Origin: Blastocatellales bacterium
GTDB lineage: Bacteria; Acidobacteriota; Blastocatellia; RBC074
Assembly: GCA_050247435.1 (NCBI GenBank)
Contig: JBFWUF010000008.1
Coordinates: 22,704 to 86,703 of the forward strand
Length of the DNA stretch: 64,000 nt
Direction of reading: 5' to 3'
The notes beneath the pieces were generated by a model. That model saw only the letters and a list, made by a program, of their open reading frames with translations, was not told the DNA's origin and searched no databases. Shown piece after piece: positions 793 to 14,240 of this stretch; within the stretch, counting starts at the first letter, position 1; the number at the start of each line of letters is the position of its first letter. The position numbers and the translations under genes are program-made.

Positions 793-867
793 CGCAGAGA
801 GTGGTCTGTTAATGTCTCAGGTATTGGCGGTTGGTAATTGGGCAAAAAACAGAAAGGAGTTTTTGCT

Positions 868-1365
868 GTGATTACCATCGTCAATCGAAAGACCTGGCGT
901 GGCGAGAGCGTCTACGTTGGGCGACCAAGTGTTCTGGGAAACCCATTTTGCATCGGCAAAGATGGGGAGCGTTCAACCGTAATTTCGAAGTATCGCCGCT
1001 GGCTTTGGAATGAACTCCAACGAGGATCGGGTCTCGTCTTTGATGAGCTTCACCGGCTTGCGAAGTTGGCCAAGTCTGGTGATCTCATTCTTGCTTGTTG
1101 GTGTTTTCCCGAAAAGTGCCACGCCGAAACTATCAAAGCGGCCGTTGAATGGATCAGCAGTCAATCTCAACAGAAACGGAGTGAAACTATGTCGGACAAT
1201 CAGAATGAAATTACCGTAGAGAGACAATGCCATTGCTGCGGAAGCTACGATGGCGACCCATACGCGATTTTGAGCAACGGATACTGCATCCCGTGTGATG
1301 AGGGCGCGAAAATCTCGTGCCTCGAAACCATCAGCCAACAACAATCATCGCCAGGCTTACAATGA
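868..1365 (+). CDS. DUF4326-family protein with a C-terminal Cys-rich (zinc-ribbon-like) extension
   Basis: Motifs VYVGRP, GNPF and ACWCFPEKCH are typical of DUF4326. The C-terminus contains C-x-CC...C-x2-C. The GTG at 868 has an AAAGGAG RBS 8 nt upstream; the ORF-track start at 838 is a TTG without an RBS. Confidence 0.6.
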   Translation: MITIVNRKTWRGESVYVGRPSVLGNPFCIGKDGERSTVISKYRRWLWNELQRGSGLVFDELHRLAKLAKSGDLILACWCFPEKCHAETIKAAVEWISSQSQQKRSETMSDNQNEITVERQCHCCGSYDGDPYAILSNGYCIPCDEGAKISCLETISQQQSSPGLQ

Positions 1366-1396
1366 AACCGCGGCCATCGTTGTGATGCGAGCGGTC

Positions 1397-1762
1397 TCAT
1401 TGCTGCGATCTCGGAAAGGCATCGCTGGATGATTCTGCCTTTCCATCAGAGAGCGGCTTTTCAAGCTTCGCGGGTTTCTCAACTTTCGCAGGTTTCGTTT
1501 TGTTCCGGCTCTCGCTGTTCTTCTTTTGCAGCCACTGCCGGAAGCCCTTGTCCGCATCGAACAGCCGCCGCATTCCCTTGTCAACCACATCGTCAGGAGT
1601 GGTTTCTCGGCCAGTCACATCCCTGACGTAGGCGACGTAATCCCGTAGGTTTGCCAACACTGTCCAACTCAGCTTGAACGACTCTCTTTCAGCGGCGATT
1701 TCATCGAAGTTGATCAGCGGAACCGAGGCGCCGCCCGTTTCTTTTTTCTTTCCTGTCGGCAT
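1397..1762 (-). CDS. hypothetical protein (leading-region gene)
   Basis: 121-aa ORF starting MPTGKKKE with an AAGGAG RBS 8 nt upstream. Lys/Glu-rich C-terminus. No recognizable motif. Confidence 0.4.
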   Translation of the reverse strand: MPTGKKKETGGASVPLINFDEIAAERESFKLSWTVLANLRDYVAYVRDVTGRETTPDDVVDKGMRRLFDADKGFRQWLQKKNSESRNKTKPAKVEKPAKLEKPLSDGKAESSSDAFPRSQQ

Positions 1763-2141
1763 AAATTCATCTCCTTGATGATTGGTTTTCGGGAACAAAT
1801 CCTGCTCTGGATTTGAAGACACTTCCCATTGAGCAAGAGCCATTCCATCGGAGTTTTCCTACTCGCCATTTCCAGCCGGATCAGATTAGGTTGTCACGTT
1901 GCATAAAGGGTTTTGAGCTAAAGGAGCCACTCTCAGCGAAGGGATTAATGCTCGCCGCAAATGGGTGAAGGGCGACGACAACATTTCACCAGACCTGCCT
2001 CAAAATGACCCGACATTTTTCCAGAGCAGCGGCAAAAGCGATTGGTACACCTGAGCGCAAATCATCTGCTAACAAGTGGGGCAGTGGATGAGGTCTACCA
2101 ATGCTCGCAAATCAAAGCCGCTACAAGCGTTATCAGGTCTT

Positions 2142-2176
2142 TCAGGTCTGCGATTGTATTTGCTGGGCAGACCTGA
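2142..2176. promoter_or_regulatory. candidate oriT / nic-site hairpin
   Basis: Perfect 10-bp inverted repeat: TCAGGTCTGC (2142-2151) and GCAGACCTGA (2167-2176), with a 15-nt loop. It is preceded by a CAGGTCT direct repeat. It lies in the 450-bp intergenic region just upstream of the RHH-like gene and the relaxase. Confidence 0.3.
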
Positions 2177-2296
2177 CGCGCCAAATGAATCAAAGGCTGA
2201 AGATAGCCGGAGACCGACGGCACGATGGTTGCCCATTTGTCATTACTGGCGAGGCTCAAGGAAAGCCGCATTCAATGAAGCGATGGAGGGCTGACA

Positions 2297-2857
2297 ATGC
2301 CGATTCGGAACAGGCCAAGACTGGTGGCTTCCACGTCGAGTACGACCAAACTTTTCGTGGACGATCTGCGCGAGGTCGGCAGCCTTTCGCGTGACGAAGA
2401 AAAGAGCCGGAGCGACGTAATTCGAGAGCTTGTCCACGAGGCATTGCGCCAACGCAGATTGCGCGCGCTGGGGCGAGACGAGAGCGAAAACCACGTGCGC
2501 AAAATCTATCAGGAGACCGTCGCCGAAGCCATCGCCCCAGTGATAAAGGAATTCGCCGATCTTCGTCAGCAATTGGCAATCGTGGCGGCGCAATCCGAAG
2601 TGAGTGTGACGTCAGACGGCGCGACAAAAAACTACGAGGTGATGCTGACGCTCTTATCGCATCTGCTGCGCCGGTCAATCGTGACCGACAACGTTGTCAA
2701 GGTGCTGATGACCGTCGGCATGCAAAAGGACGGCGTTGATTCCGAAGAGATCAGAAAACAACTCGCGGTTCAGGATGAGACAGCGATACAACAGGCACGC
2801 GAATTGATTCAGAAGCTTCCCGGAGATTACCCACACGCGATTCTGTCTGAAGGTTGA
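2297..2857 (+). CDS. hypothetical protein, possible ribbon-helix-helix relaxosome accessory protein
   Basis: 186 aa, directly upstream of the relaxase. The segment SRSDVIRELVHEALRQRR resembles RHH/CopG-type DNA-binding helices. Weak evidence. Confidence 0.4.
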   Translation: MPIRNRPRLVASTSSTTKLFVDDLREVGSLSRDEEKSRSDVIRELVHEALRQRRLRALGRDESENHVRKIYQETVAEAIAPVIKEFADLRQQLAIVAAQSEVSVTSDGATKNYEVMLTLLSHLLRRSIVTDNVVKVLMTVGMQKDGVDSEEIRKQLAVQDETAIQQARELIQKLPGDYPHAILSEG

Positions 2858-2872
2858 TGAGAACTACGAGAT

Positions 2873-5245
2873 TTGCGCGAAGAGCAGCAGCAGGTCAATG
2901 CGATGAAAGTTGTCGTCGTCGTCAAAAAGGGATTGGGAGGCAGCGGCGTCAGTCAGGCGGCTCGCTACGTTTCCACACGTGAGCGCGACGAAGAGCGCGA
3001 AGGTCAGGAAGCGCGCAAGCTCTTCTCAGAGAATGAAGAGCGATTGAACCATTCTCAGGCCAATCGTCTGCTCGGCGATGGACGCGATCCGAAGACGGAT
3101 GACGTGCTGCATCTCGTCATCAGCTTTCACCGGGAAGAAGATTTCAATCAGTTGGGAATGGATGAGGAATCACGGCTCGACGGAGTTCGGAAAACGACGC
3201 GCGGCACGCTGAAAGAGATGACCGATGCGCTTCACGCAGAGAGGCTGCGCTGGGTCGCTGGCATTCACCGCAATACCGACAATCCGCATGCTCATCTGCT
3301 CATCCATCGTGACTATGTTGATCGGCAGACGGGACGCACAAAACGTTTGGACACTTTGCCCAAAGAATTGCGCGTTAGCTGGGAGAAAGCGCCGGACGGA
3401 AAGCGCATCATCAATCCCGGCCTGTTCAGCCAGACCTTTGAAAAACATCTCGATCAGAACATCAAGCAGTTCACGAACGAGCAGCAAAGAAAAAGCCAGG
3501 AAGAACGAGTAGAACGCACCACACTCGGCCAGGCGATGGTCGCCTCCGACCGCATTGAGCAATTGCGGGAATCTTTCCGGGCGGCTGTCACCTTTGGCGA
3601 GTGGCGTCGCTACCAGGTGGTTGATGAGCAGGGCCGGAGCCGATTGATTTCTGAATACGATCTGCGGCAAAGAGCCGGTGCGATTGGCAGGCAGATGACG
3701 GCGCAGATAAAGTTCAACCTGCCTGCCGAGACACGCGCACAAATGCGGTGGGAAGCTGAAGCGCAGGAGATCGGCAGGTATGGCGGCGTGATCAAAAAGA
3801 TTCATGTCATGCGTCTGGCCGATCTCAACTCTGCCGAGTTGAATTTGCAACAAGCCATCTCAGCTTCGCGGCCCGCCATAAGCAAATCGGTTGCAATCAG
3901 AGAAAAGTATGGAACTGCCGGATTGCCGATTTCAACGCCGATCCTTTCACGCGCAGACCTGGGACAGTTGCAGAACCGCGCGATCTTTCTTGCAGATGCA
4001 GAGAAGCTGAACAAGCTGGAGGAGATTCGTGTGACGCTGGCCACTGAAAAAGGCGAGCCAGCGCGCCTGGACACGGAAACAGGGCGGCTGCGAGCGCAGC
4101 GTTTCGTCGCGCGCTCACGCCTGGTCGTCGAGCAGCAAACTGCTGCCCGCTTTGAAGAGGCAAAACACATTCGGCAATGGGGTGTTGGCAACTGTGAACA
4201 CCAGACGAAATATTCTCTCGCCGGAATTGAATCGGCGCTGGCTTCCGCGTCCGACCAAGCAAAGTTTATCGGCGCGCGAAGCCTTCACTGGAACGACGAG
4301 AAGCGTGAAGTGGCGCGCGAGAAAGCCGATGAGTTGAGCCGGCAGCGCGTCGAAGTCCTGAGCCGGATTGCAGACGAGCGCGGGAAGCTTTCAGAAGAAG
4401 TAAAGCGCCGCGCTGAAGTGGTCAAAGCCCTTGATGAAATTTATGCAGGAGAGAAAGAACGATACCGCAAGGAAGGCCGCAAATTGCCAGCGATGCTCTT
4501 CACCGAGCAGGATTTGAGAGAACTCGATGCACACGCCGTTCGTCGTCACGATCCGGGAGTTTATCGAACGCTGACAACCATCGAACGGGATTACGATGCG
4601 CACAGCCATCGCGATCCGAAGGAGGTTGTCCGTGAGCGATTAAGCTGCGCCGGCGCGCGCGAACTAATGGCCGGAATTGAGGTGCGTGAGTCCCAGGCAA
4701 AGCTGGAAAGATTCAACGAACGCCGCACCCAGATGATGGTGATTACGCAAGAAGGACACGGGCCAGAAATCACGCTCGCCCGCTTGGCTGACGTTGAGCC
4801 GAAATCGCCGCTGGAGCAGCTCTTCAAACCTTTGCTGACACGAAGCGAGAAGTATCAGCGAGTCGCGGCAGCGGTCGAAAAATACGGCGAGCGCCTTCAG
4901 CAACAACACAAACAAAACCAAGCCACGTTTGCCGTGCTGGCTGAAGCCGCCCGGAGCTACGAGCAGGATTTCATCCGGTTGAATCCGGGGCAGCCAAACC
5001 CACGTCCGCAATTCACGGCTCGTGAAATCAGCAGGCTCGAATTACAGATCATCAAAGAGAACGATCCGGCGCTTCGTGAACACTATGCGAAGTTCTATCA
5101 CGAGGCGTTGGAAGAACCGCGTCCAGGGTTTTCACGCGCAATCACTCTCAACCCGACAGAAGGCAAACAGATTCTTGATCTGAAGCGCGACGTGCCGCTC
5201 TTCAGAGATGCTGATCACCAGCACGCGACAAGTCTTGAACGGTGA
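2873..5245 (+). CDS. conjugative relaxase (MobA/VirD2-type, MOBP/MOBQ-like) with a long uncharacterized C-terminal extension
   Basis: N-terminus MKVVVVVKKGLGGSGVSQAARYVSTRE carries a candidate catalytic Tyr. The three-His relaxase motif is HRNTDNPHAHLLIHRD. The true start is probably the ATG at 2903; the ORF-track start is a TTG at 2873. About 480 aa after the relaxase domain have no recognizable motif. Confidence 0.8.
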   Translation: MREEQQQVNAMKVVVVVKKGLGGSGVSQAARYVSTRERDEEREGQEARKLFSENEERLNHSQANRLLGDGRDPKTDDVLHLVISFHREEDFNQLGMDEESRLDGVRKTTRGTLKEMTDALHAERLRWVAGIHRNTDNPHAHLLIHRDYVDRQTGRTKRLDTLPKELRVSWEKAPDGKRIINPGLFSQTFEKHLDQNIKQFTNEQQRKSQEERVERTTLGQAMVASDRIEQLRESFRAAVTFGEWRRYQVVDEQGRSRLISEYDLRQRAGAIGRQMTAQIKFNLPAETRAQMRWEAEAQEIGRYGGVIKKIHVMRLADLNSAELNLQQAISASRPAISKSVAIREKYGTAGLPISTPILSRADLGQLQNRAIFLADAEKLNKLEEIRVTLATEKGEPARLDTETGRLRAQRFVARSRLVVEQQTAARFEEAKHIRQWGVGNCEHQTKYSLAGIESALASASDQAKFIGARSLHWNDEKREVAREKADELSRQRVEVLSRIADERGKLSEEVKRRAEVVKALDEIYAGEKERYRKEGRKLPAMLFTEQDLRELDAHAVRRHDPGVYRTLTTIERDYDAHSHRDPKEVVRERLSCAGARELMAGIEVRESQAKLERFNERRTQMMVITQEGHGPEITLARLADVEPKSPLEQLFKPLLTRSEKYQRVAAAVEKYGERLQQQHKQNQATFAVLAEAARSYEQDFIRLNPGQPNPRPQFTAREISRLELQIIKENDPALREHYAKFYHEALEEPRPGFSRAITLNPTEGKQILDLKRDVPLFRDADHQHATSLER

Positions 5246-5272
5246 GAAGCGCGTGCAGCCGTCATAGCAATC

Positions 5273-8023
5273 ATGAGTGACAGAGAAACTTTCAATTCGG
5301 ATTTGAGGTTGATGGAACTAGCCGCGCGCAACCCTTCGCTCGGCGGGCGCGAACTGTTCCAAGAAATCATCGAACGCGGCCCTGTACTGGAAGTGATCGA
5401 GCATCCTCAGGCGCGAAATCCGCGCGCAGCATTCATTTCAAATGAGATTGACCATCCTGATCATCGAACTCCGGTTGAGCAAGCGAACTGGCTGAACGAA
5501 CAGAGTCAGGCCATGCGTGACCTGTATGAACGTGGGGCCGGGATCAAAGGCGAGGTGTTGGTCATTCCCACTGAAGAATACGAACTGAGCGAAGAACGCG
5601 AGACGCCGTTCATCACGACTCTTTCCTATGCGCTGAGAAAGATTGGCGACGTTGAGAGGGCACGTGAGTTTCACGCGCTGGCGCTCGCTATCAGCGGTGA
5701 AACGGCTGACGCACGCACACAGATCGCAGTGTTCAAAACCTACTATGACCGGATCGCGCGTGGCGAACGAGAACAGCGTTTCCGCAAAGGAAATGAGGCT
5801 GAACGAGCCGGAGCATTGACGCAGACGCTTGAGGAGATGCGTGTGATCGCTGCTGAGATGGCGAGGCTTGAAACCCGAGAAAGCGTAGACGCCGTTCAAA
5901 CAGCAGAAGATCGAGAAGATGACATTCCAGAAAACCGGCGGAACACTGCTGCGCACCGAATCAGTTTGCGCGATGAATCGCTACGCCTGCCCGCAGGGTT
6001 GAGCTATGAACAGAAAGAACGACTCGTCAGCAGAACGATCCCGGAAATTGATCGCCGACTTGAGCGCGGCGTTAATCGTGAAGCTCTCTTCAAGGCGATT
6101 GACAGAGCGATGTTCCGGCCCGATCCAGCCAAATATAGGCGTAAACTCGCAGAGCTTACTGGCACGCCCAAAGACGAGAACCCCGAACGTGCGGTCAGCA
6201 AAGATGAGTATCTCGAAAGCCAGCGGACATTGCTCCAGTTGTGTGAAGAAGAGCGTCTTCATCTGCGCGAATTGAAGGCCACGCACGATGGGAATGAACT
6301 GGAACCTCACCAGTATGGGCGTCTCAGCCAGGTTGATAATCTGGCTCGTCGGCTCAGACAAGGGATAGGCAGAAATGTTTCGGATGAGAGGCCTGATAGC
6401 GCCGCGCATTCGCGCCTGTTTGTGAGCGTGCCGGAACGGGGTGTCGGGGAGAATGCGCTTCGTCTGCCCGTGAGTAGCGTAAAGGTCTACGAGACGATGG
6501 CAAAGATTGCAGCAGGAGAGAAACTATCCCTGCAAACCTGGGCTGGCAAGGATGGCCCCGAAGTCAGGCTGGCTTTGACGGAACGTGAGGCCGATGAGCG
6601 AAGCAGAATCGGGGCTTTCCTCAAGAACTATGTTGGTGAGCGATTGCGCGATCCGGAGACGCGCTCACTCAACACTTCTTCTGTTTTCCGAGATGCACGT
6701 GCCGCAATCTTTAGCGCTACTACACCAGAAGCACTGGGCCGCGTCGCGGCTGATTTGCTGCGCGTCAATGAACGCCGAAGCGGGGAATTACGACAGCATC
6801 GCGTCGCGCCGGAGAAGTATCCGCTTCCGATAGTGATGCCGCTGAACACACGGGAGCGAAATCTGCTTTTCAATGGCCGTGCGCCGGAGCATCACACGCC
6901 GGAAATGCGCGAGCTACGGCTGAATTATGGGCTGTCAAGAAGGGAGCGTACTGCGCGGATCGCCGACCTTCGTGAAGGAAGGATAGAATCATCTGAAGTT
7001 CTCAAGACGATGCTTAAAGAACTGGAAACAAGAACAACAGCCAAGGCCATCGCGCATTTTCAGGCGAGCATCATCAACGAAAAGATGAACAGCGAAGGAA
7101 GCGTGAATCTTCACCTGCTGAATCAAAGAATCGCGCCCCACGAGCGGACCTTCCTTTATGAGCTTAGTGAAGAAAGAAAGAGAGAGTTAGTGAGATTGCC
7201 GTCTGCTGGGCGATCCGAAGTTGTCAGAGACAACGACCTTGCCGAACCGCCTGTCACTCGCGTCTTCGGTGCGATTCCCAGAGAAAACCGCACCTTTCGT
7301 GAATACATGGCGAATATGGGAAGCATCGAACGGCAACTGCTGAGTGAAGCATTGATTAAGCGAGGAACTGAGTTTGAAAAAGCAGTTTCAGAACAATCCA
7401 GGGACAGGCTGACCATCACCGAAGCGCGCGCGTTACTTCCTGAAGCGCAGCAACGAGAAATCCGCTTGCGCGCCAGAAATCTGGCGTGGCAAAGTCTCGT
7501 GCCGGAGGAGACGTTCGACCGTAATCCTTCGCCCGAAGCCGTGCGGATCAGCGAGACAATCGCTCACATCCAGGAGCATCTTCAGGAAAGAGCGAGCATC
7601 GCCCGAACTGTCCGCACTGATTTTACGGCTGAGCGGATTCGCTCAGAAGAAACAGCAAGGCAAGCGCCAGGGGCGCACAGGCTGGTGGAGCTTGATCGTT
7701 ACGCGGCGCAGACTCGAGAAGATGTCTATCATGCTTTTGAACTGCTTGATATTCAGCGCCGCGACCTTGAATTTGCTCGCACACATCACACTGGCCGAGT
7801 TAAACAAGAAGACATTTGGGATCGCGGCACAGGTGTCCGACCGGAAATATCAAAGGAATCAAACTCGATTTCCACCTCGATGTACGTCACCTCAGATCGT
7901 GAATGGCATTTCGACAGTTTGCGTGAAGCGCTCAATGTTGAGTTGAGCAGATTGCAACCCGAAGAAAGAGGGCGCGAGATTGGACGGCACCACCAGGTGG
8001 ATGATTTAACGCGAGATCATTGA
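5273..8023 (+). CDS. large (916 aa) hypothetical protein downstream of the relaxase
   Basis: Long ORF rich in charged residues (R/E), predicted helical. No Walker A motif, nuclease motif or TM segment was recognised. Clean codon usage; 27 nt after the relaxase stop. Confidence 0.5.
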   Translation: MSDRETFNSDLRLMELAARNPSLGGRELFQEIIERGPVLEVIEHPQARNPRAAFISNEIDHPDHRTPVEQANWLNEQSQAMRDLYERGAGIKGEVLVIPTEEYELSEERETPFITTLSYALRKIGDVERAREFHALALAISGETADARTQIAVFKTYYDRIARGEREQRFRKGNEAERAGALTQTLEEMRVIAAEMARLETRESVDAVQTAEDREDDIPENRRNTAAHRISLRDESLRLPAGLSYEQKERLVSRTIPEIDRRLERGVNREALFKAIDRAMFRPDPAKYRRKLAELTGTPKDENPERAVSKDEYLESQRTLLQLCEEERLHLRELKATHDGNELEPHQYGRLSQVDNLARRLRQGIGRNVSDERPDSAAHSRLFVSVPERGVGENALRLPVSSVKVYETMAKIAAGEKLSLQTWAGKDGPEVRLALTEREADERSRIGAFLKNYVGERLRDPETRSLNTSSVFRDARAAIFSATTPEALGRVAADLLRVNERRSGELRQHRVAPEKYPLPIVMPLNTRERNLLFNGRAPEHHTPEMRELRLNYGLSRRERTARIADLREGRIESSEVLKTMLKELETRTTAKAIAHFQASIINEKMNSEGSVNLHLLNQRIAPHERTFLYELSEERKRELVRLPSAGRSEVVRDNDLAEPPVTRVFGAIPRENRTFREYMANMGSIERQLLSEALIKRGTEFEKAVSEQSRDRLTITEARALLPEAQQREIRLRARNLAWQSLVPEETFDRNPSPEAVRISETIAHIQEHLQERASIARTVRTDFTAERIRSEETARQAPGAHRLVELDRYAAQTREDVYHAFELLDIQRRDLEFARTHHTGRVKQEDIWDRGTGVRPEISKESNSISTSMYVTSDREWHFDSLREALNVELSRLQPEERGREIGRHHQVDDLTRDH

Positions 8024-11000
8024 TGACTCGGTCTTTGTGCCCAGCGCCGTGACAGTAGCTTTCCGTTCCAACTTGCCCCAACCAATAATCGCTCCTTTCA
8101 TTGCCGTCCAGACAGAGCGCGCCATGACGTAATACATTACCTGGCGATAACAGAATCGCTGCAGGAACAGCCACGACAGCAGGCTCCATTGCTCGCGTTT
8201 TTCGAGCAGAAACGCGAAGCCAGCGGCCATCCAATCCACTGCCAGAAATAGCGCATAGTAAAAGAGCGCCTGTTTGAGATTGGTGATCGCGTATTCGCCT
8301 GGATGTTCCCATCGCTCGAGCGCTGCTGAAATTAGCGTCCATACGAACATCAAATCCATAAGTGGCGAAATCAACGGAAAAAGAATCTGAAAAATCCAGA
8401 CGTTTGGCATAGCGACGAAACCTAGCGCGCCGTATCGCGAATTGAAGAGCGCATCGCGATGTTTCCACATACACTGCAACGTGCCAAACGACCAGCGAAA
8501 TCGTTGTTTGGCCAACCCGCGCACCGTATCAGGAGCTTCCGTCCAGGCAACCGCGTCTTCTTCATATCCGATCCTGTAACCAAGCTTGCGAACTTTAAGC
8601 GTCAGATCCTGGTCCTCGGCCAGCGTGTCTGAGGCGAAACCGCCGAGTTGTTTGAGCAGGTCGCGCCGCCACGCGCCGACCGCGCCTGGCACGACCGTGA
8701 TGCAGTTGAGCGCGGCGAAGGCGCGGCGATCTAGATTCTGCGCCGTGATGTATTCGAGCGCCTGCCAGCGCGTCACCAGATTGATGCGATTGCCGACTTT
8801 GGCGTTCCCGGCAATCGCCCCGACGCGCGGATCGTCAAAGCGGCGGGCGAGCGCGCCGACCGTTTGCGGAGGAAAGATCGTGTCGGCGTCCAGCGCGACA
8901 ACGATTTCGCCTTGCACGAATTGCAACCCGAAATTTAGCGCTTCGGCTTTGCCGCCGTTAGTTTTAGTCAGCAGACGCACGCGCGATTCGGCGGCGAACT
9001 GTTCACGCACAACCTCGCTCGTGCCGTCGGGCGAACCGTCGTCCACGACGATGATTTCGAAGCGGGGATAGTCCGACGCCAGCAAACTGTGGATCGTTTG
9101 CGCGATCACTTTCTCTTCGTTGTAGGCGGCGATGATAACGGAAACGAAGGGCGCTTCTGCGGCGCTCACAGTTTCCCGCGTTCGCCGCCTTGACCGTCGT
9201 TGTTGCGCCAGCGCCAGCGCGCCGATGAAGACGAGGCGCGCCAAACCGAGCACGATGCCGATCAGGAAAACCCAGCGCAGCGCCCAACCTCCAACCGCCA
9301 TTGCATAAAAGGTCACGGCGTCGGCTTTGGAAAAGAAGCCTCTCTCGGGCGGTAGCGGCGGCATAGCCTGATCGCGCGTCATCCCGGCCAGTTGTGAAAC
9401 CGTCGTAAAGCGATAGCCTTTGGTGCGCAGATCGCGAATCAACCTCGGCAACGCCTCGACGGTTTGCGCGCGGTCGCCTCCGCCATCGTGCAGCAATACC
9501 ACCTGTCCGCGCTCGTCGGGGTTGGGGTTTTCGATTCCCGCCATCGTGCGCTGGACGATGGCGTCCGCACCGGGCAAAGTCCAGTCGTCGGGATCCACGC
9601 GGAGTCCGGTGATGATGTAACCCAGGCGATTCGCAATCGCCGCCGGCTCGACTTCGTCCGGCGTTTGAGGTTCAGCGTCGCCGAAATACGGCGCGCGAAA
9701 CAGCCGGGTTGACCTTCCGGTTAGCGATTCGATCAACCGCTGCGTCGCGTTGAGTTCCAGTTCGGTGATGCGGCCCGGAATTTCGCCGAGGTTCGGATGC
9801 GTGTACGAATGATTGCCGATGTCGTGGCCTTCGGCGACGATGCGTTTGACGAGACCGGGATTCCCCTGCCCGTTCTGGCCGATGATGAAGAATGTCGCGG
9901 GAACGTTTTCGCGTTTGAGGATATCGAGGATTTGCGGCGTCCACTTCTCGTCCGGCCCGTCGTCGAAGGTCAAGGCGACCTGGCCCGGACGCCAGCCCGT
10001 GCGTCGAATGACGTAAGAGGAGGGAATGCTCAGGTATTGCGCGGAACGAATCAGCCCGCTCTTCGCATCCAGCGTGATTTCCCGCGAGCCTTCCCTGGGC
10101 GAAGCCTCGAATTGCAGAACCTCGCCCATCCCCTCGAAGTCCACGTCGTAACCGTACACAATCTGCTTCAATCCATCAGGAGAAGCCTCCATCTGCTGAT
10201 TGCCGAAAATAGCCCATAGCGACGGGTCTTCGGAACCCATCCGCCAGAGCGCGAATCCCGCGACGTTGTAGCCGCGCGCAACGCGCATCTGGTTGAAAGC
10301 GGTCACGCCGTCGAGAAACCAAACCGTATGCTCGGCGCCGCCTTCATCTCCGTAGCGGAAATAAGGATTGCGAGTCGCCGGATCGAACTTGATGCTGGCC
10401 TCGCTGTCGCGCGCTTCGAGTACGGCTTCCTGAAAAGTCAGCTCTTCGGTTTCTTTGCCTTTGCTCCAGCCATAGCCGTAGCCGCCGATGCAGACGACCG
10501 TTTTCGCGGGATCGAGTTCTTTCATTCGTTTGGCCAGCGTCGCCTCGAACCAGGGCTGCCCGGCGATGCTGCCCGGATCGCTTTCATTCCAATGCTCGTC
10601 GTAGGCCATCAAGAGGAGAGAATCATTGGCTGCGGCGTAATCCCGGTAATTCCACGCCGGGTCGTCGAAGGGCGCGGCCTGCATCACCGTCCAGTTCCGC
10701 GCCTTGAATGCTGCGTGAAGCTGTCGCACGAACGCAAGCAGATTTTTCTGCGAAGTGTTCGGGACTTCCTCAAAGTCAATGCAAACACTCTGGAAGCCAT
10801 TGTCGCCGACTACGCGCGTCAGTTCACTGACCAGCCGCGTGCGCGCGGTTTCATCGCTGATTTGTTGGGCGAGCGTTTGCGGTTCCCACTTCCCATCCTT
10901 CGAATTGTGAATCATCGGGATGATCGGCAAGTCGGAACGTTGTTTGCGAACCAGATTGAGCGCGCGCGGATCAACTTCAAGCGCCAATGGATGATCGCCC

Positions 11001-11449
11001 GTTTGCAGCCGAATCCATTCGGGGATCAATTGGTCAAGTTGCGGCAAATGGCGTTTGAGCGATTGGTAGCTCGAATCGTCCCAGTTGACATAAAACCCGC
11101 TGGCCAGCGGGCGCGTGGGCGAATGACTCACGCTCACGGCCGGCGTGGGCGTTTTGCCTTGATGAGCTATCGTCGCCCGGTCAAGCGCGGCCCGTGCACG
11201 CGCGGCTTTCCGCTCGCGGCGATCAGCGATCAACTGCGGCGCTTGCGGTTTGGCGTCCACCACGCCGGGCAGGACGGACAACTGTCGCAGATTCAATTGC
11301 GGCAATGTCGGATTGATGAGTATGCTGGCGACGAAGATCGCTGCAAGCGCCGTGACGATGGCGGCCAATGGCCAACCGGCGCGGCGCAGGTTGCGGCTTC
11401 GGCGGCCCAGTGGATCGTAAAAAACAGGAAGACTTTTGCCAGTTTGCAT
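8006..11449 (-). CDS. multidomain exopolysaccharide synthase: N-terminal GH18-like domain + CE4 (NodB) polysaccharide deacetylase + GT2 processive glycosyltransferase (PgaB/PgaC-like fusion)
   Basis: N-terminal TM anchor. GH18-like motifs YVNWDD and CIDFEEV. CE4 motifs TFDDGPD, HSYTHP and RAPYFG. GT2 motifs VSVIIAAYNEE, VVDDGSPDG, LDADT and QRFRW (the QxxRW motif). C-terminal TM helices. Confidence 0.85.
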   Translation of the reverse strand: MQTGKSLPVFYDPLGRRSRNLRRAGWPLAAIVTALAAIFVASILINPTLPQLNLRQLSVLPGVVDAKPQAPQLIADRRERKAARARAALDRATIAHQGKTPTPAVSVSHSPTRPLASGFYVNWDDSSYQSLKRHLPQLDQLIPEWIRLQTGDHPLALEVDPRALNLVRKQRSDLPIIPMIHNSKDGKWEPQTLAQQISDETARTRLVSELTRVVGDNGFQSVCIDFEEVPNTSQKNLLAFVRQLHAAFKARNWTVMQAAPFDDPAWNYRDYAAANDSLLLMAYDEHWNESDPGSIAGQPWFEATLAKRMKELDPAKTVVCIGGYGYGWSKGKETEELTFQEAVLEARDSEASIKFDPATRNPYFRYGDEGGAEHTVWFLDGVTAFNQMRVARGYNVAGFALWRMGSEDPSLWAIFGNQQMEASPDGLKQIVYGYDVDFEGMGEVLQFEASPREGSREITLDAKSGLIRSAQYLSIPSSYVIRRTGWRPGQVALTFDDGPDEKWTPQILDILKRENVPATFFIIGQNGQGNPGLVKRIVAEGHDIGNHSYTHPNLGEIPGRITELELNATQRLIESLTGRSTRLFRAPYFGDAEPQTPDEVEPAAIANRLGYIITGLRVDPDDWTLPGADAIVQRTMAGIENPNPDERGQVVLLHDGGGDRAQTVEALPRLIRDLRTKGYRFTTVSQLAGMTRDQAMPPLPPERGFFSKADAVTFYAMAVGGWALRWVFLIGIVLGLARLVFIGALALAQQRRSRRRTRETVSAAEAPFVSVIIAAYNEEKVIAQTIHSLLASDYPRFEIIVVDDGSPDGTSEVVREQFAAESRVRLLTKTNGGKAEALNFGLQFVQGEIVVALDADTIFPPQTVGALARRFDDPRVGAIAGNAKVGNRINLVTRWQALEYITAQNLDRRAFAALNCITVVPGAVGAWRRDLLKQLGGFASDTLAEDQDLTLKVRKLGYRIGYEEDAVAWTEAPDTVRGLAKQRFRWSFGTLQCMWKHRDALFNSRYGALGFVAMPNVWIFQILFPLISPLMDLMFVWTLISAALERWEHPGEYAITNLKQALFYYALFLAVDWMAAGFAFLLEKREQWSLLSWLFLQRFCYRQVMYYVMARSVWTAMKGAIIGWGKLERKATVTALGTKTESSMISR

Positions 11450-11461
11450 CAGCGCCTCTCT

Positions 11462-11653
11462 CTACTTCAGTCTTTCCGCTGCGTTCTTCTTTTCCGCTTC
11501 TGGTTCGTTGATTTCGTTGACGCCCCGCTTAAAGCCGCGAATCGCTTCGCCCAGGCCCTTGCCGAGTTCCGGCAACTTCTTCGGGCCGAAAACGAGCAGC
11601 ACGATGCCGAGCACGATGATCAGATGCAACGGTTGAAAGAGTCCTTCAAACAT
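11462..11653 (-). CDS. tatA: twin-arginine translocase subunit TatA/E
   Basis: [44 protein letters not shown] is the canonical TatA TM and amphipathic helix. ATG at 11653. Ends 12 nt before the start of the fusion synthase. Confidence 0.85.
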
Positions 11654-11673
11654 GTTTGTTCCTTTCCCTTCAA

Positions 11674-11865
11674 TCAGACGGTTTGCGGTTGCGCGAACAG
11701 CGCGGCAAACTCGACGCGCGGATTTACTCGTCGCGCCTGCCGTTTGCGTACCCACTCGCTGACCGTGAACTGCACTTGCGGAGTATTTGCCGTGTGGGCT
11801 TGTGGCTGATCGGTCTGTTCCTGCTTCAACACTTCTCCACGTTTGATCAATTTTGGTTTGTTCAT
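11674..11865 (-). CDS. small hypothetical protein (63 aa) upstream of tatA
   Basis: ATG at 11865 with an AGAGG RBS 7 nt upstream. The sequence [17 protein letters not shown]... is basic. Same strand as tatA and 20 nt upstream of it. Confidence 0.35.
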
Positions 11866-12337
11866 CTTGTGACCTCTTTTTTTCAGTTCGTTGCAGTCAA
11901 TCGCTTTGGTTGCGGCGCGACATTTATCAGCCTGGGCAACCGTTGTGCCAGATGAGCACGGCGGTGGTTTCATTTGTAAAAACGCTGGAAACCTCGTCTG
12001 TATGCGCGTTTTCGTGAGGCGGGTTGGAATGGATGGCCGACTGCATTGCAGATCAGCCACGAAAGTAATTACAGGTTGGGAGCGACGCTGGTCGCCGCGT
12101 GCGAGGCATTTTGGCTCCGGCTTGGGAATGACGGCCAGATCGCCACAAATGAAAGCCGAAGGCTGGCGATTTCAGCTTGAATTTAGCGTTCTTTCCATCA
12201 GGCACGGCGCTTGCTCAACGAGTGAGCGAACATCGTCGGGCAACGCGCTCGATGATCCATCGCAGGTTCAACGCAGGCAGGAATCACGATGGGTTCGATG
12301 ACTTCAAACCACCGCAAAAAGAAAGAGGAAACAGCAC

Positions 12338-12730
12338 ATGAAGACAATGACAAAAACGCTTGCCGGGTTGGCGCTCGCGGGAATGATCGCAATGGGCGTC
12401 GCCGCGCAAACCCCGGCTCCGGCTAAACCCATGACAGCGCCAAAGCACATGACCAAAACTGCGCATGTGACCAAGAGCGATTCGGACATTCAGGCAGACA
12501 TTCAAAAACGGCTTGCCGCCTCGCCGAAGCTGAAATCGGAAAACATCAGCGCCAGCGTTTCGGGCGGCGTCGCCATCTTCACCGGCGCGGTCAAGAACGC
12601 GGGCAGCAAGGGCGGCGTGACCAGACTGGCGAAAGCCGCCGGCGCGAAATCCGTCGTCAACAACATCACGGTCGAGCACGCGGCCAAACCGATGCCCGCC
12701 GCGAAGCACGCGAATCCAGCGAAGAAGTAG
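12338..12730 (+). CDS. BON domain-containing secreted protein
   Basis: Signal peptide MKTMTKTLAGLALAGMIAMGVAAQ. The C-terminal ~70 aa have a BON-like pattern (SVSGGVAIFTGAVKN...VNNITV). Confidence 0.7.
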   Translation: MKTMTKTLAGLALAGMIAMGVAAQTPAPAKPMTAPKHMTKTAHVTKSDSDIQADIQKRLAASPKLKSENISASVSGGVAIFTGAVKNAGSKGGVTRLAKAAGAKSVVNNITVEHAAKPMPAAKHANPAKK

Positions 12731-12862
12731 TAAACATCAATGCATTGAATCGCGATTGGAGGGCGAAACCCCGATAACGTCTAATTCCACTTACAGGAGG
12801 ATAAAAGAAGAGCGCGTCGCGGCGGCATCCTTGTTGCGGCGCGTTTTTCATTTGGATCAGTC

Positions 12863-13453
12863 ATGAAGTTGATGTCACTGTTTTTTTCAGGCGCGATGTA
12901 CGACATGTTTGCGCTTGCGCTGCCCATCGCGGAGAAAATGCTCCGTCCGGTGATCGTTTACGTGTTTCTGGTCGTCGCCTTGCGCGTCTTCGGCAAACGC
13001 GAACTGGCGCAACTCAATCCTTTCGATTTGGTCGTACTGCTGTCGCTGTCGAACACCGTGCAGAACGCCATCATCGGCGATGACAACTCAGTGACCGGCG
13101 GTTTGATCGGCGCGTTCACGCTGCTGGCGACGAACTATCTGGTCGTGCGCTTTCTGTTTCGCCATCGCAGGCTGGATCAGATCGTTGAGGGGGCATCAAC
13201 CGTGCTGATCGAGAACGGGCGCATTCGGCGCCAGGCGTTGGCGAAAGAGTTGTTGACGGAATCGGAATTGCTGAGCGTCGCGCACCGGCAGGGATTCAAG
13301 AATCTGAGCGAGATCAGTCGCTGCGTGCTCGAACCCGGCGGGGTGTTTTTCATCGAAGCCAAAACGCCGCCCATCGCCGAACGGCAACATGCTGAATTGC
13401 TCGCGCAACTGGAACAGATCAAAAACCAGCTCGCTCAACTCAACCGCGCTTGA
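12863..13453 (+). CDS. DUF421 (YetF-like) membrane protein
   Basis: N-terminal TM helices followed by the conserved DUF421 core (LAQLNPFDLVVLLSLSNTVQNAIIGDDNSVTGG). Confidence 0.7.
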   Translation: MKLMSLFFSGAMYDMFALALPIAEKMLRPVIVYVFLVVALRVFGKRELAQLNPFDLVVLLSLSNTVQNAIIGDDNSVTGGLIGAFTLLATNYLVVRFLFRHRRLDQIVEGASTVLIENGRIRRQALAKELLTESELLSVAHRQGFKNLSEISRCVLEPGGVFFIEAKTPPIAERQHAELLAQLEQIKNQLAQLNRA

Positions 13454-14240
13454 TCGCGCATTGTTCGCGGTAAGCGCACACCCTGCACTTCCAGTATTCC
13501 GCCGGAGCGGGTAGTTTGCCGGAATCAATCTCTTCAAAACGGGCGAGCGCGGAGTGGGCATTTTCGGCGTTCACGTCGCTTTCAAACGTTTCGATGGCAT
13601 TGGCATCTTCGGCCAGAATCTGAATCCGTTTGCGCGGGCGTTTGAAAAACAGCCCATAGAGGTCGCCCTGCAGTTCGGCTATTCGCTTCGAGACCACCAA
13701 ATATGCTCGCCTGCGCGTGGTTTTGAATTCGTAAACGAAGTCACGAGCCAGTCCGTCCGGGATTCCAAGCGCGACATAGCGCGAATATTCAAAACCCCAT
13801 CTCACAGTGGCGTATTTCTCCGCAAACGCGCTTTGGTTCGCTCTTCCGCGTTCATAAGGATCAGCCGATTGGCTGAAACAGGCTTTTGATTTAGGCGGAA
13901 CTCCGATCTTGCGCCGTCGCGTTCCTTTCGGTTCGACAAGCTCCAACCGGGCAATCTGTTCGAGTAGTTTCAACGGCGCGATACGCTTTTCAATGCCCAC
14001 TGTTTCCTGTAAACGCTCCAGGCGATCTGCAAGGTACGCGCCGAAGTATCCAGGTTCCTTCTCTTTATTCCTGAACCAGGATTGCATCGCGCACCACTCC
14101 ATTTGCGCCAGGTCATGCATGCCAATGAATACGAGAGCGTCAGGCAGAGCGCCGCGCCGCTCTTTCTCGATTGGCAACAGTTGGTCAGAATTTACGCCCA
14201 CCTGAAACAGATAATCGAATAGCGTGTACGTTTTTTTCAT
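13440..14240 (-). CDS. Cas4/RecB-like PD-(D/E)xK nuclease with 4Fe-4S cluster cysteines (DUF83-like), solo
   Basis: N-terminal Cys (MEWCAM). Motif II GIPDGL. Motif III EFK. QGDLY (the QxxxY motif). C-terminal C-x2-C-x5-C (CRVCAYREQC). No cas1/cas2 or CRISPR repeats nearby. Confidence 0.7.
   Translation of the reverse strand: MKKTYTLFDYLFQVGVNSDQLLPIEKERRGALPDALVFIGMHDLAQMEWCAMQSWFRNKEKEPGYFGAYLADRLERLQETVGIEKRIAPLKLLEQIARLELVEPKGTRRRKIGVPPKSKACFSQSADPYERGRANQSAFAEKYATVRWGFEYSRYVALGIPDGLARDFVYEFKTTRRRAYLVVSKRIAELQGDLYGLFFKRPRKRIQILAEDANAIETFESDVNAENAHSALARFEEIDSGKLPAPAEYWKCRVCAYREQCAIKRG

Follow-up and report, generated by a model that had tools for sequence, protein, structure and literature searches.

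A GH18-CE4-GT2 fusion protein of Acidobacteriota as a probable self-contained poly-N-acetylglucosamine synthase in a putative sigma-54-dependent transcription unit

Synthase-dependent exopolysaccharide (EPS) systems normally spread the polymerisation, de-acetylation and trimming of the chain over several proteins, and the coupling of these steps is still argued. A 64,000-nucleotide stretch of a metagenome-assembled genome (MAG) of Blastocatellales (Acidobacteriota), below called the window, carries a gene whose single 1147-aa product appears to hold all three activities. How are they arranged in one chain, what polymer do they make, and do the two small genes in front of the fusion gene belong to the same machine? 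An earlier note, made from the nucleotide letters, had proposed an operon of a 63-aa basic protein, tatA and the fusion. The three open reading frames (ORFs) are present where it had placed them. On the minus strand, in the order of reading, they are the small ORF (11674-11865), tatA (11462-11653) and the fusion gene (8006-11449), all with ATG starts. The spacing of 12 nt between tatA and the fusion gene was correct, but the small ORF lies 224 nt from the fusion gene and not 230 nt; 20 nt separate it from tatA. A protein identical to the 1147-aa product is on record from a Blastocatellales MAG (P0001).

We propose that the fusion is a self-contained synthase-dependent poly-N-acetylglucosamine machine and the functional core of a three-gene sigma-54-dependent transcription unit. 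Taken as a whole, this explanation seems to us reasonably probable.

Three enzymes in one membrane protein

The N-terminal hydrolase domain occupies residues 115-415 (10205-11107, minus strand). Pfam assigns it to glycoside hydrolase family 18 (GH18; PF00704, 54.0 bits against a cut-off of 29.6), with residues 119-405 covering positions 5-315 of the 317 in the profile. The motifs YVNWDD (120-125) and CIDFEEV (223-229) are present. In a PDB sequence search, residues 170-415 matched the SleL/YaaH/YdhD group of GH18 proteins (3cz8, 3e-25), and the catalytic I-D225-F-E227 aligned with IDFE of YdhD. The first two Asp of the D-x-x-D-x-D-x-E motif are missing, as in the SleL/YdhD subgroup. We also built an AlphaFold model from 17 sequences. 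Its mean predicted local distance difference test score (pLDDT) was 69 and its predicted template modelling score (pTM) 0.45; the deacetylase and glycosyltransferase cores were acceptable, and the (beta/alpha)8 barrel of the hydrolase had a pLDDT of 80-95. A Foldseek search of the PDB with this domain returned SleL (2e-23), a Chromobacterium violaceum chitinase (5jh8, TM-score 0.85) and YdhD (TM-score 0.76), and no PgaB/GH153 chain was among the 50 best matches. BLASTP against E. coli PgaB gave only a 34-aa fragment of the deacetylase domain (E=1.3), so that similarity to neither GH153 nor PgaB was found. The earlier note had left it between a GH18 and a GH153-like domain; Pfam, the PDB alignment and Foldseek all indicate a true GH18 of the SleL/YdhD type and not GH153.

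The second domain, residues 489-690 (9380-9985, minus strand), belongs to carbohydrate esterase family 4 (CE4, the NodB-homology de-N-acetylases) and carries all five CE4 motifs. Polysacc_deac_1 (PF01522) covers residues 489-588 with 114 bits, and the motifs TFDDG (494-498), HSYTHP (547-552) and RAPYFG (585-590) were read in the translation. Residues 486-690 matched PgdA-type (1e-34) and chitin deacetylases in the PDB. The best CE4 matches in NCBIfam were PdaB (147 bits), NodB (134) and PgdA (134), with no PgaB or IcaB model among the 25 NCBIfam matches shown.

The third domain, residues 765-1000 (8450-9157, minus strand), is a glycosyltransferase of family 2 (GT2). Several Pfam families of this type match residues 769-1039 (Glyco_tranf_2_3 with 131 bits), and the motifs DDGS (803-806), DAD (854-856), AED (944-946) and QRFRW (982-986) follow the D,D,D,Q(R/Q)xRW pattern of a processive enzyme, with membrane helices on both sides. 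Membrane GT2 synthases were found in the PDB with residues 764-1063, and hyaluronan synthases were the best membrane GT2 matches of Foldseek for the GT2 and membrane part. The best curated family in NCBIfam was TIGR03937 (PgaC_IcaA) with 199.7 bits, which is less than half of its equivalog cut-off of 422.3; NodC scored 100.5. BLASTP gave 29.7% identity and 139 bits with E. coli PgaC, and 30.4% identity and 102 bits with NodC.

In order to evaluate conservation, we extracted 160 non-identical full-length relatives from many phyla from the fetched loci. In the GH18 domain D225 is kept in 158 of them, E227 in 156, M-x-Y-D in 158 and W402 in 159; taken singly, Y283 is kept in 153 and D284 in 158. 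The CE4 motifs TFDDG, H-x-x-x-H, R-x-P-Y, D-x-x-D-W and L-x-H are invariant, and so are the four GT2 motifs. Since catalytic residues are kept in 156-160 of the 160 relatives, all three domains appear to be maintained as active enzymes. Thus, the earlier note was correct in recognising one inner-membrane chain that unites a hydrolase of GH18 type, a deacetylase of CE4 and a processive GT2, and every motif that it quoted is in the translation.

The same note had asked how periplasmic and cytoplasmic domains can be arranged within one chain. Hydropathy places the first transmembrane helix (TM1) at residues 27-45, after an N-terminal tail with six Lys or Arg in 24 residues. The second helix (TM2) was found at about 716-747, followed by a cytoplasmic QQRRSRRRTR; as a feature we place it at residues 712-748 (9206-9316, minus strand). 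Further membrane helices begin at 1009, with peaks at 1009-1040 and 1064-1082. The long helices of the model, 16-45, 705-758, 1010-1048, 1058-1082 and 1094-1133, agree with these positions, those at the C-terminus having low confidence. Residues 1009-1133 (8051-8425, minus strand) would form the polymer channel. Because TM1 and TM2 bracket the GH18 and CE4 domains and the sides rich in Lys and Arg are cytoplasmic, the predicted order is a cytoplasmic N-terminus, TM1, periplasmic GH18 and CE4, TM2, cytoplasmic GT2 and a C-terminal helix bundle, which answers the question of topology. The alignment with PgaC begins at PgaC residue 75. It suggests that the periplasmic enzymes were inserted where a PgaC- or hyaluronan synthase-like protein has the loop joining its first and second helices.

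Directly before TM1 stands the cytoplasmic motif P-V-F-x-D-x-x-G-R-R, which together with the helix makes a module of residues 8-45 (11315-11428, minus strand). In the 160 relatives F10 is kept in 148 and R17 in 149, and this conservation spans phyla: Acidobacteriota, Bacillus, Kocuria and Streptomyces all retain the motif in front of TM1. A role in regulation or in the binding of a ligand is conceivable.

It turned out that the GH18-CE4-GT2 architecture is common and not rare. A protein search returned more than 120 clusters with 60-86% identity and the same Pfam set, and all the named ones were from Acidobacteriota. A scan of one genome per species gave 593 relatives, and the best 80 of them are nearly all aligned end-to-end; five are shortened, three of these at a contig end. 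Among these 80 are Pyrinomonadaceae, Terriglobia, Sphingomonas, Caulobacter, Rhizomicrobium, Rhodanobacter, Frateuria, Gemmatimonadota, a cyanobacterium, Armatimonadota, Elizabethkingia, Mucilaginibacter, Chitinophagaceae and Anoxybacillus. Metagenomes added 558 further relatives. Plasmids or chromids of Sphingobium, Novosphingobium, Bacillus mycoides, Deinococcus and Prevotella carry the fusion as a plain "glycosyltransferase". In total, full-length relatives span at least eight phyla. The earlier claim that usually split activities are fused here therefore holds for the single chain, but such a chain is not unusual as a sequence.

We compared the gene neighbourhoods at 167 loci and found no conserved partner gene around the fusion, neither a porin nor a PgaD-like partner. 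The best candidate was an ArnT/PMT-like membrane protein of 640 aa, present at 25 of these loci, all acidobacterial. The absence of a conserved partner at the 167 loci is consistent with a self-contained enzyme.

The polymer and its relation to known systems

The closest studied system is MatAB of Streptomyces (SCO2963/SCO2962), which is reported to make poly-N-acetylglucosamine (PNAG) (PMC5972031). MatB is described as having an extracellular CE4 domain, a TM helix and an intracellular PgaC-like GT2 domain, and its CE4 is nearest to PgdA and NodB (PMC5972031); matA is described as a translationally coupled gene of a membrane protein just upstream of matB (PMC4391728). The fusion has the same order of domains, the same flavour of CE4 and a collinear CE4-GT2 part, and partners of the PgaA or PgaD type are found in neither system. 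Proteins of Streptomyces and Kocuria annotated as 'bifunctional polysaccharide deacetylase/glycosyltransferase family 2' match only residues ~488-1135 of the fusion, with 40-41% identity over ~650 aa. The small membrane protein encoded upstream carries the motif-and-helix module that is found at the N-terminus of the fusion: at two Streptomyces loci the ORF in front of the MatB-like gene reads PVFVDxSGRRQR and continues into a TM helix, like residues 8-45 (E=0.002 for the pair). The motif also occurs in the Kocuria CE4-GT2 protein itself. It was noted at L170 3900-4667, L172 2970-3716, L171 and L173 (our numbering of loci), and in Streptomyces a small protein of its own, encoded in front of the MatB-like gene, bears it. 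The two systems differ in that the fusion is a single chain with 300 residues of GH18 between TM1 and CE4, whereas MatAB is without a hydrolase domain, and in that the host of the fusion is a diderm acidobacterium. We read the window protein as a putative fused MatA/MatB-type system with an added GH18, a reading made through MatB-like homologues rather than authentic MatA and MatB sequences. On a Kocuria rosea plasmid (L173 5984-6970), a 'chitinase' gene stands tail-to-tail with the MatB-like CE4-GT2 gene. As support for a link to GH18 it was rejected, because its similarity to the GH18 domain of the fusion is undetectable.

With E. coli PgaABCD and staphylococcal IcaADBC the fusion shares a processive GT2, partial de-N-acetylation by a CE4 enzyme and limited hydrolysis. 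It differs from them in that its hydrolase is GH18 and not GH153, its deacetylase is not of the PgaB/IcaB type, the activities are fused and not split, and the locus has neither a PgaA porin nor PgaD/IcaD. In an operon survey, IcaB-like deacetylase-glycosyltransferase fusions were described in Gram-negatives, with pgaA and pgaD undetected and the product unconfirmed (Bundalovic-Torma et al. 2020, PMC7112194); GH18 and Acidobacteria have no occurrences in the text of PMC7112194.

In the mechanism that we propose, the cytoplasmic GT2 would polymerise uridine diphosphate-N-acetylglucosamine (UDP-GlcNAc) and pass the growing chain across the membrane between helices of the same protein. On the outer side it would emerge beneath the two periplasmic domains tethered between TM1 and TM2. 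There CE4 would strip some N-acetyl groups, giving a cationic, adhesive polymer, and GH18 would use substrate-assisted catalysis to cut GlcNAc bonds, so that the chain is trimmed, released or cleared. Such is the role of PgaB-GH153, PelA, BcsZ and AlgL in other synthase systems. A hydrolase within synthase-dependent EPS systems is a general rule (PMC5933820). In evolution, a MatA/MatB-like system of the Streptomyces type may have been fused into one chain with the addition of a GH18 domain. The substrate, the linkage and the order of the periplasmic steps are those that we infer from these comparisons.

We slightly favour partially de-acetylated poly-beta-1,6-GlcNAc, a PNAG-like polymer, as the product. 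The beta-1,6 linkage is preferred because PgaC_IcaA is the best curated family, PgaC gives more bits than NodC, and MatAB provides a precedent. It is possible, though we hold it to be doubtful, that the product is instead a beta-1,4-linked poly- or oligo-GlcNAc of the chitin or chitosan kind, with a NodC-like synthase, a NodB-like deacetylase and a chitinase-like GH18 joined in one chain. Adjacent nodB and nodC genes on Rhizobium plasmids are collinear with residues 471-992 at ~31% identity, the identity with NodC equals that with PgaC, the fold and the D-x-E motif of the hydrolase are those of SleL, YdhD and chitinases, and the best CE4 matches (PdaB, NodB, PgdA and chitin deacetylases) are all enzymes of beta-1,4-linked GlcNAc. 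NodB, however, works in the cytoplasm, and the products of NodC are short oligomers with beta-1,4 bonds; the rhizobial pair also differs from the fusion in being separate proteins, without GH18 and without a periplasmic module bracketed by TM helices. The authors of the MatB study were likewise unable to separate 1,4 from 1,6 linkage by sequence (PMC5972031). Against a beta-1,4 product, the bit scores in NCBIfam are about two-fold higher for PgaC/IcaA than for NodC, and the polymer of MatB, which has the same CE4 flavour and is the closest studied type, is reported to be sensitive to dispersin B and reactive with anti-PNAG antibodies (PMC5972031).

The nearest solved and curated relatives of both periplasmic domains are peptidoglycan enzymes: the cortex-lytic GH18s SleL, YaaH and YdhD on one side, and the deacetylases PgdA, PdaA, PdaB and PdaC on the other. 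Residues 115-415 are matched best, in sequence as in fold, by the Bacillus proteins SleL, YaaH and YdhD, which have the I-D-F-E motif in common with the fusion. They are soluble or LysM-anchored spore enzymes that act on cortex peptidoglycan, whereas the GH18 domain here is part of a polysaccharide synthase chain and is also found in phyla that do not sporulate. One could suppose from this relationship that GH18 and CE4 act on peptidoglycan, opening or modifying the sacculus locally for the passage of the polymer. We consider this improbable, since in every relative the two domains are covalently tethered to the synthase between TM1 and TM2, which points to the emerging chain as their substrate; the family is found in both monoderm and diderm hosts, and MatB has the same type of CE4 inside a PNAG system.

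Several observations weigh against a self-contained PNAG machine under sigma-54 control. To our knowledge, GH18 enzymes act only on beta-1,4 GlcNAc bonds, and the nearest CE4 relatives all act on beta-1,4-linked GlcNAc. The CE4 is of the NodB/PgdA/PdaB type and not of the PgaB/IcaB type, E. coli PgaB having no real similarity to it; the GT2 falls short of the PgaC_IcaA cut-off and is as identical to NodC as to PgaC (~30%). The relative placement of the domains in the AlphaFold model is unreliable at this pTM. The Streptomyces homologues that we compared are plasmid-borne and not confirmed as MatAB themselves. At the 167 loci no outer-membrane export partner for a diderm host is evident, and the window ORFs scanned yielded no rpoN and no cognate enhancer-binding protein. 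A literature search for a characterised GH18-CE4-GT2 protein or for acidobacterial PNAG returned none. The label 'PNAG-type' given by the earlier note is thus plausible, but the PgaC_IcaA score, the type of the CE4 and the beta-1,4 chemistry of GH18 speak against it.

The transcription unit, tatA and the small protein

All three starts are preceded by ribosome-binding sites (AGAGG, GGAAAGGAA and GAGAGG-type), AGAGG standing before the ATG of the small ORF. Between the small ORF, tatA and the fusion gene we found no terminator-like site of any strength. A scan for sigma-70 promoters and terminators gave no promoter-like site and terminator-like sites at the level of chance. In an Rfam scan of window positions 7500-13000 at E<=1, the only match was a sub-threshold ctRNA, and no upstream riboswitch was found, including one for cyclic di-GMP. 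A plus-strand ORF of 493 aa (10328-11809), antisense to the fusion gene, tatA and the small ORF, was rejected as being without support.

A sigma-54 (-24/-12) promoter, TGGCACAACGGTTGC (11936-11950, minus strand), is an exact TGGCAC-N5-TTGC located 70 nt upstream of the ATG of the small ORF. For the window and four relatives (L082, L083, L087 and L097), we compared in an alignment the intergenic sequence that precedes the unit. TGGCAC-N5-TTGC heads the unit whichever gene is first: the small ORF in the window, L087 and L097, tatA in L082, and the synthase in L083. The -24/-12 element was also found in L090 and L092/93, and nine loci of the close clade have it. When all loci whose upstream sequence was long enough were compared (105), such elements clustered in this close clade (>=68% identity); the background is 0.024 per kb. 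A divergent element of sigma-54 type, AGGCACGGCGCTTGC (12200-12214, plus strand), has one mismatch to the consensus and lies 123 nt upstream of the ATG of a gene with a BON domain (12338-12730, plus strand; Pfam BON, 8.5e-13). Its columns are invariant at all five aligned loci, where it faces the BON gene or, in L097, YetF. The BON gene holds the same position in L082, L083 and L087-89. The 249-nt region between the two promoters (11951-12199) contains conserved blocks TGTGGCG ... CGCC[TA]C[GA], which may be an enhancer, that is, a candidate site for an enhancer-binding protein. An inverted repeat, GGTTTC-N16-GAAACC (11963-11990, minus strand), immediately precedes the -24 element, without conservation among the aligned relatives.

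Because the gaps are tight and a conserved sigma-54 promoter stands upstream of the first gene, the small ORF, tatA and the fusion gene are very probably co-transcribed, and in vivo their transcription would depend on sigma-54. That sigma-54 can govern surface polysaccharides is a familiar theme (PMC3162934). What is new here, compared with what the earlier note had noticed, is the conserved sigma-54-type control of the unit and the recognition of the family to which the small protein belongs.

Further sites of sigma-54 type were observed on the minus strand between 28300 and 38110 of the window, just upstream of several envelope genes. The site at 29186 stands before genes of a Hydrolase_4/VirJ-like protein and LPG_synthase_TM, and the one at 30851, CGGCACGATGCTTGC, before a second BON gene (30155-30739). 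Others are at 34718 (DUF4136) and 36171 (PP2C phosphatase), and those at 32936 and 38094 (MprF-like LPG_synthase_C) are more doubtful. Together with those at 11936 and 12200, these sites look like a dense sigma-54 'cell envelope' regulon. In L083 the synthase gene is flanked by the same set of genes: LPG synthase, DUF4136, BON and MacB.

The tatA gene itself is convincing. It scored 72.7 bits with TIGR01411 (tatAE) against a cut-off of 53.9, and 63.7 bits with Pfam TatA_B_E against 21 (9e-18). The N-terminal TM segment, the F-G hinge and the amphipathic helix of this 63-aa protein of the TatA/E family are intact. The ratio of nonsynonymous to synonymous substitution rates (dN/dS) was 0.15-0.22 in comparison with L081, L082 and L097, which indicates purifying selection. 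Its vicinity to the fusion gene is restricted to 4 of ~170 related loci. It adjoins the synthase gene in the window, L081 (86% identity) and L082 (79%), and in L097 (69%) it lies ~1.2 kb upstream with a YetF gene in between. Within the fetched flanks (up to 4-6 kb, less at contig ends), no tatA was found at the ~165 other loci, including L087 (83%) and L083 (76%). Past the close clade, no synteny of tatA or the small ORF with the synthase was found among 160 loci from genomes and metagenomes. No TatC was seen among the window ORFs scanned, the window having been scanned incompletely.

One may imagine a functional coupling, in which GH18 and CE4 fold in the cytoplasm and are moved across the membrane by the twin-arginine translocation (Tat) system, the Arg-rich N-terminus of the synthase serving as a signal-anchor. 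The gap of 12 nt and the common promoter, the fact that tatA is never more than 1.3 kb from the synthase gene in the four contexts that have it, rearranged as they are, and the sequence GRRSRNLRR ahead of TM1 are what would be expected of it. We find such coupling scarcely credible, as the many loci without tatA in their flanks include one with an 83%-identical synthase, the same N-terminal motif is found in the relatives from Bacillus, Kocuria and Streptomyces, and the Arg pair is often K-R, S-R or Q-R in relatives, with flanks unlike S/T-R-R-x-F-L-K. We also know of no description of a polytopic protein inserted first by Tat and later by Sec. As a Tat signal, the N-terminus of the window protein (G-R-R-S-R-N-L) was rejected: the first Arg is R in 96 of the 160 relatives and K, A or T in the others, and the flanks do not fit. 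Co-transcription of a Tat component with the synthase, as claimed earlier, is then very probable, but the link is restricted to one lineage, and we found no evidence here for functional coupling between tatA and the synthase.

The small ORF encodes a protein of 63 aa with a net charge of about +6 and a motif M-x-K-A-R-L-I-K-R. A longer version of this ORF with a GTG start (11674-12060) was ruled out because its start would precede the conserved promoter. Pfam and NCBIfam gave no match with the single sequence or with the alignment. The protein has no TM segment, and its model consists of three short helices with a pLDDT of about 70. Eight close homologues of 61-65 aa have invariant ends, and dN/dS in comparison with L087 was 0.16, again a sign of purifying selection. 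A profile search of 1.8 billion representatives returned 143 clusters (E<=1e-3), nearly all of them 58-72 aa long and aligned end-to-end. All the named members are hypothetical proteins of Blastocatellia or Acidobacteriota MAGs, with at least two paralogues under the locus tags of one MAG (AB7P14_).

Members of this family were found before the synthase gene and before genes of GH43 and GH1. Another has UPF0102 as its neighbour, and one closes a Ysc84 operon that adjoins a Sigma54_activat gene; two further contexts (L176 and L177) lie on contigs too short to inform on neighbours. In this Blastocatellia-wide family the small gene is usually the first one behind a sigma-54 promoter: in 7 of 10 independent contexts a -24/-12 element stands 67-132 nt upstream of the ATG of the family member. 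In L084 (6001-6186) and L086 (6001-6189) the small gene follows an extracytoplasmic function (ECF) sigma gene and a gene of 296 aa, beside msrB, DUF547, katG, dps and fur. Proteins of this subgroup end in C-T-E-C, which hints at a link to redox or stress.

Could the 63-aa protein be a dedicated accessory or regulatory subunit of the synthase, an analogue of PgaD, IcaD or MatA? Three lineages (the window, L087-89 and L097) have its gene immediately in front of that of the synthase, and it is under purifying selection, both of which speak for such a subunit. PgaD and IcaD are membrane proteins, in contrast to the small protein, and BLASTP detected no similarity to PgaD. The small ORF is absent from relatives with 86%, 79% and 76% identity, and a family of at least 143 clusters has several paralogues per genome in contexts as unrelated as an ECF sigma operon, GH43/GH1 and UPF0102. 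A MatA-like module is, besides, already within the fusion. A role as a subunit therefore seems very unlikely to us. From its sequence relatives and their promoters, the small protein would be a member of a sigma-54-regulon family and not a subunit of the synthase. The earlier note had suggested an accessory or regulatory peptide; the protein is real and conserved, but it is not specific to the synthase, belonging to a multi-copy family in unrelated contexts. Apparently, tatA and the small gene look like co-regulated passengers of one sigma-54 promoter rather than dedicated partners of the synthase.

Flanking genes and significance of the fusion family

On the plus strand, window positions 838-8023 carry DUF4326, a ribbon-helix-helix protein, a relaxase of MobL/MobA type (790 aa, 2873-5245) and a 916-aa protein without a family match (5273-8023). 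This region looks like a mobilisable element. A sigma-54-like site, CGGCACGATGGTTGC (2218-2232, plus strand), lies 64 nt upstream of the ribbon-helix-helix gene that heads the relaxase operon and is almost identical to CGGCACGATGCTTGC at 30851, possibly by coincidence. The 916-aa ORF runs towards the synthase gene, and the two overlap by 18 nt at the 3' end of the latter. In relatives, genes of Transgly_assoc and MacB/FtsX take its place, and the last ~14 residues of the window synthase diverge from the family consensus. A 266-aa ORF (13440-14240, minus strand) with cysteines at its C-terminus has a weak match to Cas4/PD-(D/E)XK (TIGR00372, E=7e-5, below the cut-off). It stands alone between the YetF/DUF421 gene and a gene of an Nramp transporter, and no CRISPR context was seen there.

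The locus is real and was correctly described. Judged from sequence comparison, its novelty is lower than the earlier note had estimated: the protein appears to be an uncharacterised, widespread variant of MatB/PgaC-type poly-GlcNAc synthases to which a GH18 domain was added, and its neighbours tatA and the small ORF are probably local and incidental. The gene family is already in databases, the linkage to tatA is local, and current understanding is not overturned.

The gene is nevertheless common in the Acidobacteria of soils, a group noted for producing matrix and genetically hard to study. From the conserved sigma-54 promoters one would expect matrix formation to be under envelope or stress control, and the small-protein family may serve as a candidate marker of the sigma-54 regulon. 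Three active sites on one widespread membrane protein would make a minimal model for the coupling of polymerisation, de-acetylation and trimming, and independence from conserved partner genes makes the protein suited to cryo-electron microscopy and reconstitution. With all of them in one chain, imaging of a single particle would also capture synthesis, modification and cleavage as coupled steps. The family also poses a puzzle of specificity: GH18 and NodB-type CE4 enzymes are known only on beta-1,4 GlcNAc, and the nearest studied synthases are reported to be beta-1,6. There is some chance, in our view a rather small one, that the product is a beta-1,4-linked, partly de-acetylated GlcNAc polymer, made by a single-chain bacterial chitin or chitosan synthase-editor in soil Acidobacteriota, Proteobacteria, Bacteroidota, Gemmatimonadota, Bacillota and others, or else, if it is PNAG, that the protein contains the first GH18 to cleave beta-1,6 GlcNAc. 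It is this question of linkage that gives the family its real experimental interest, as either outcome, a beta-1,4 synthase-editor or a beta-1,6-cleaving GH18, would be new enzymology.

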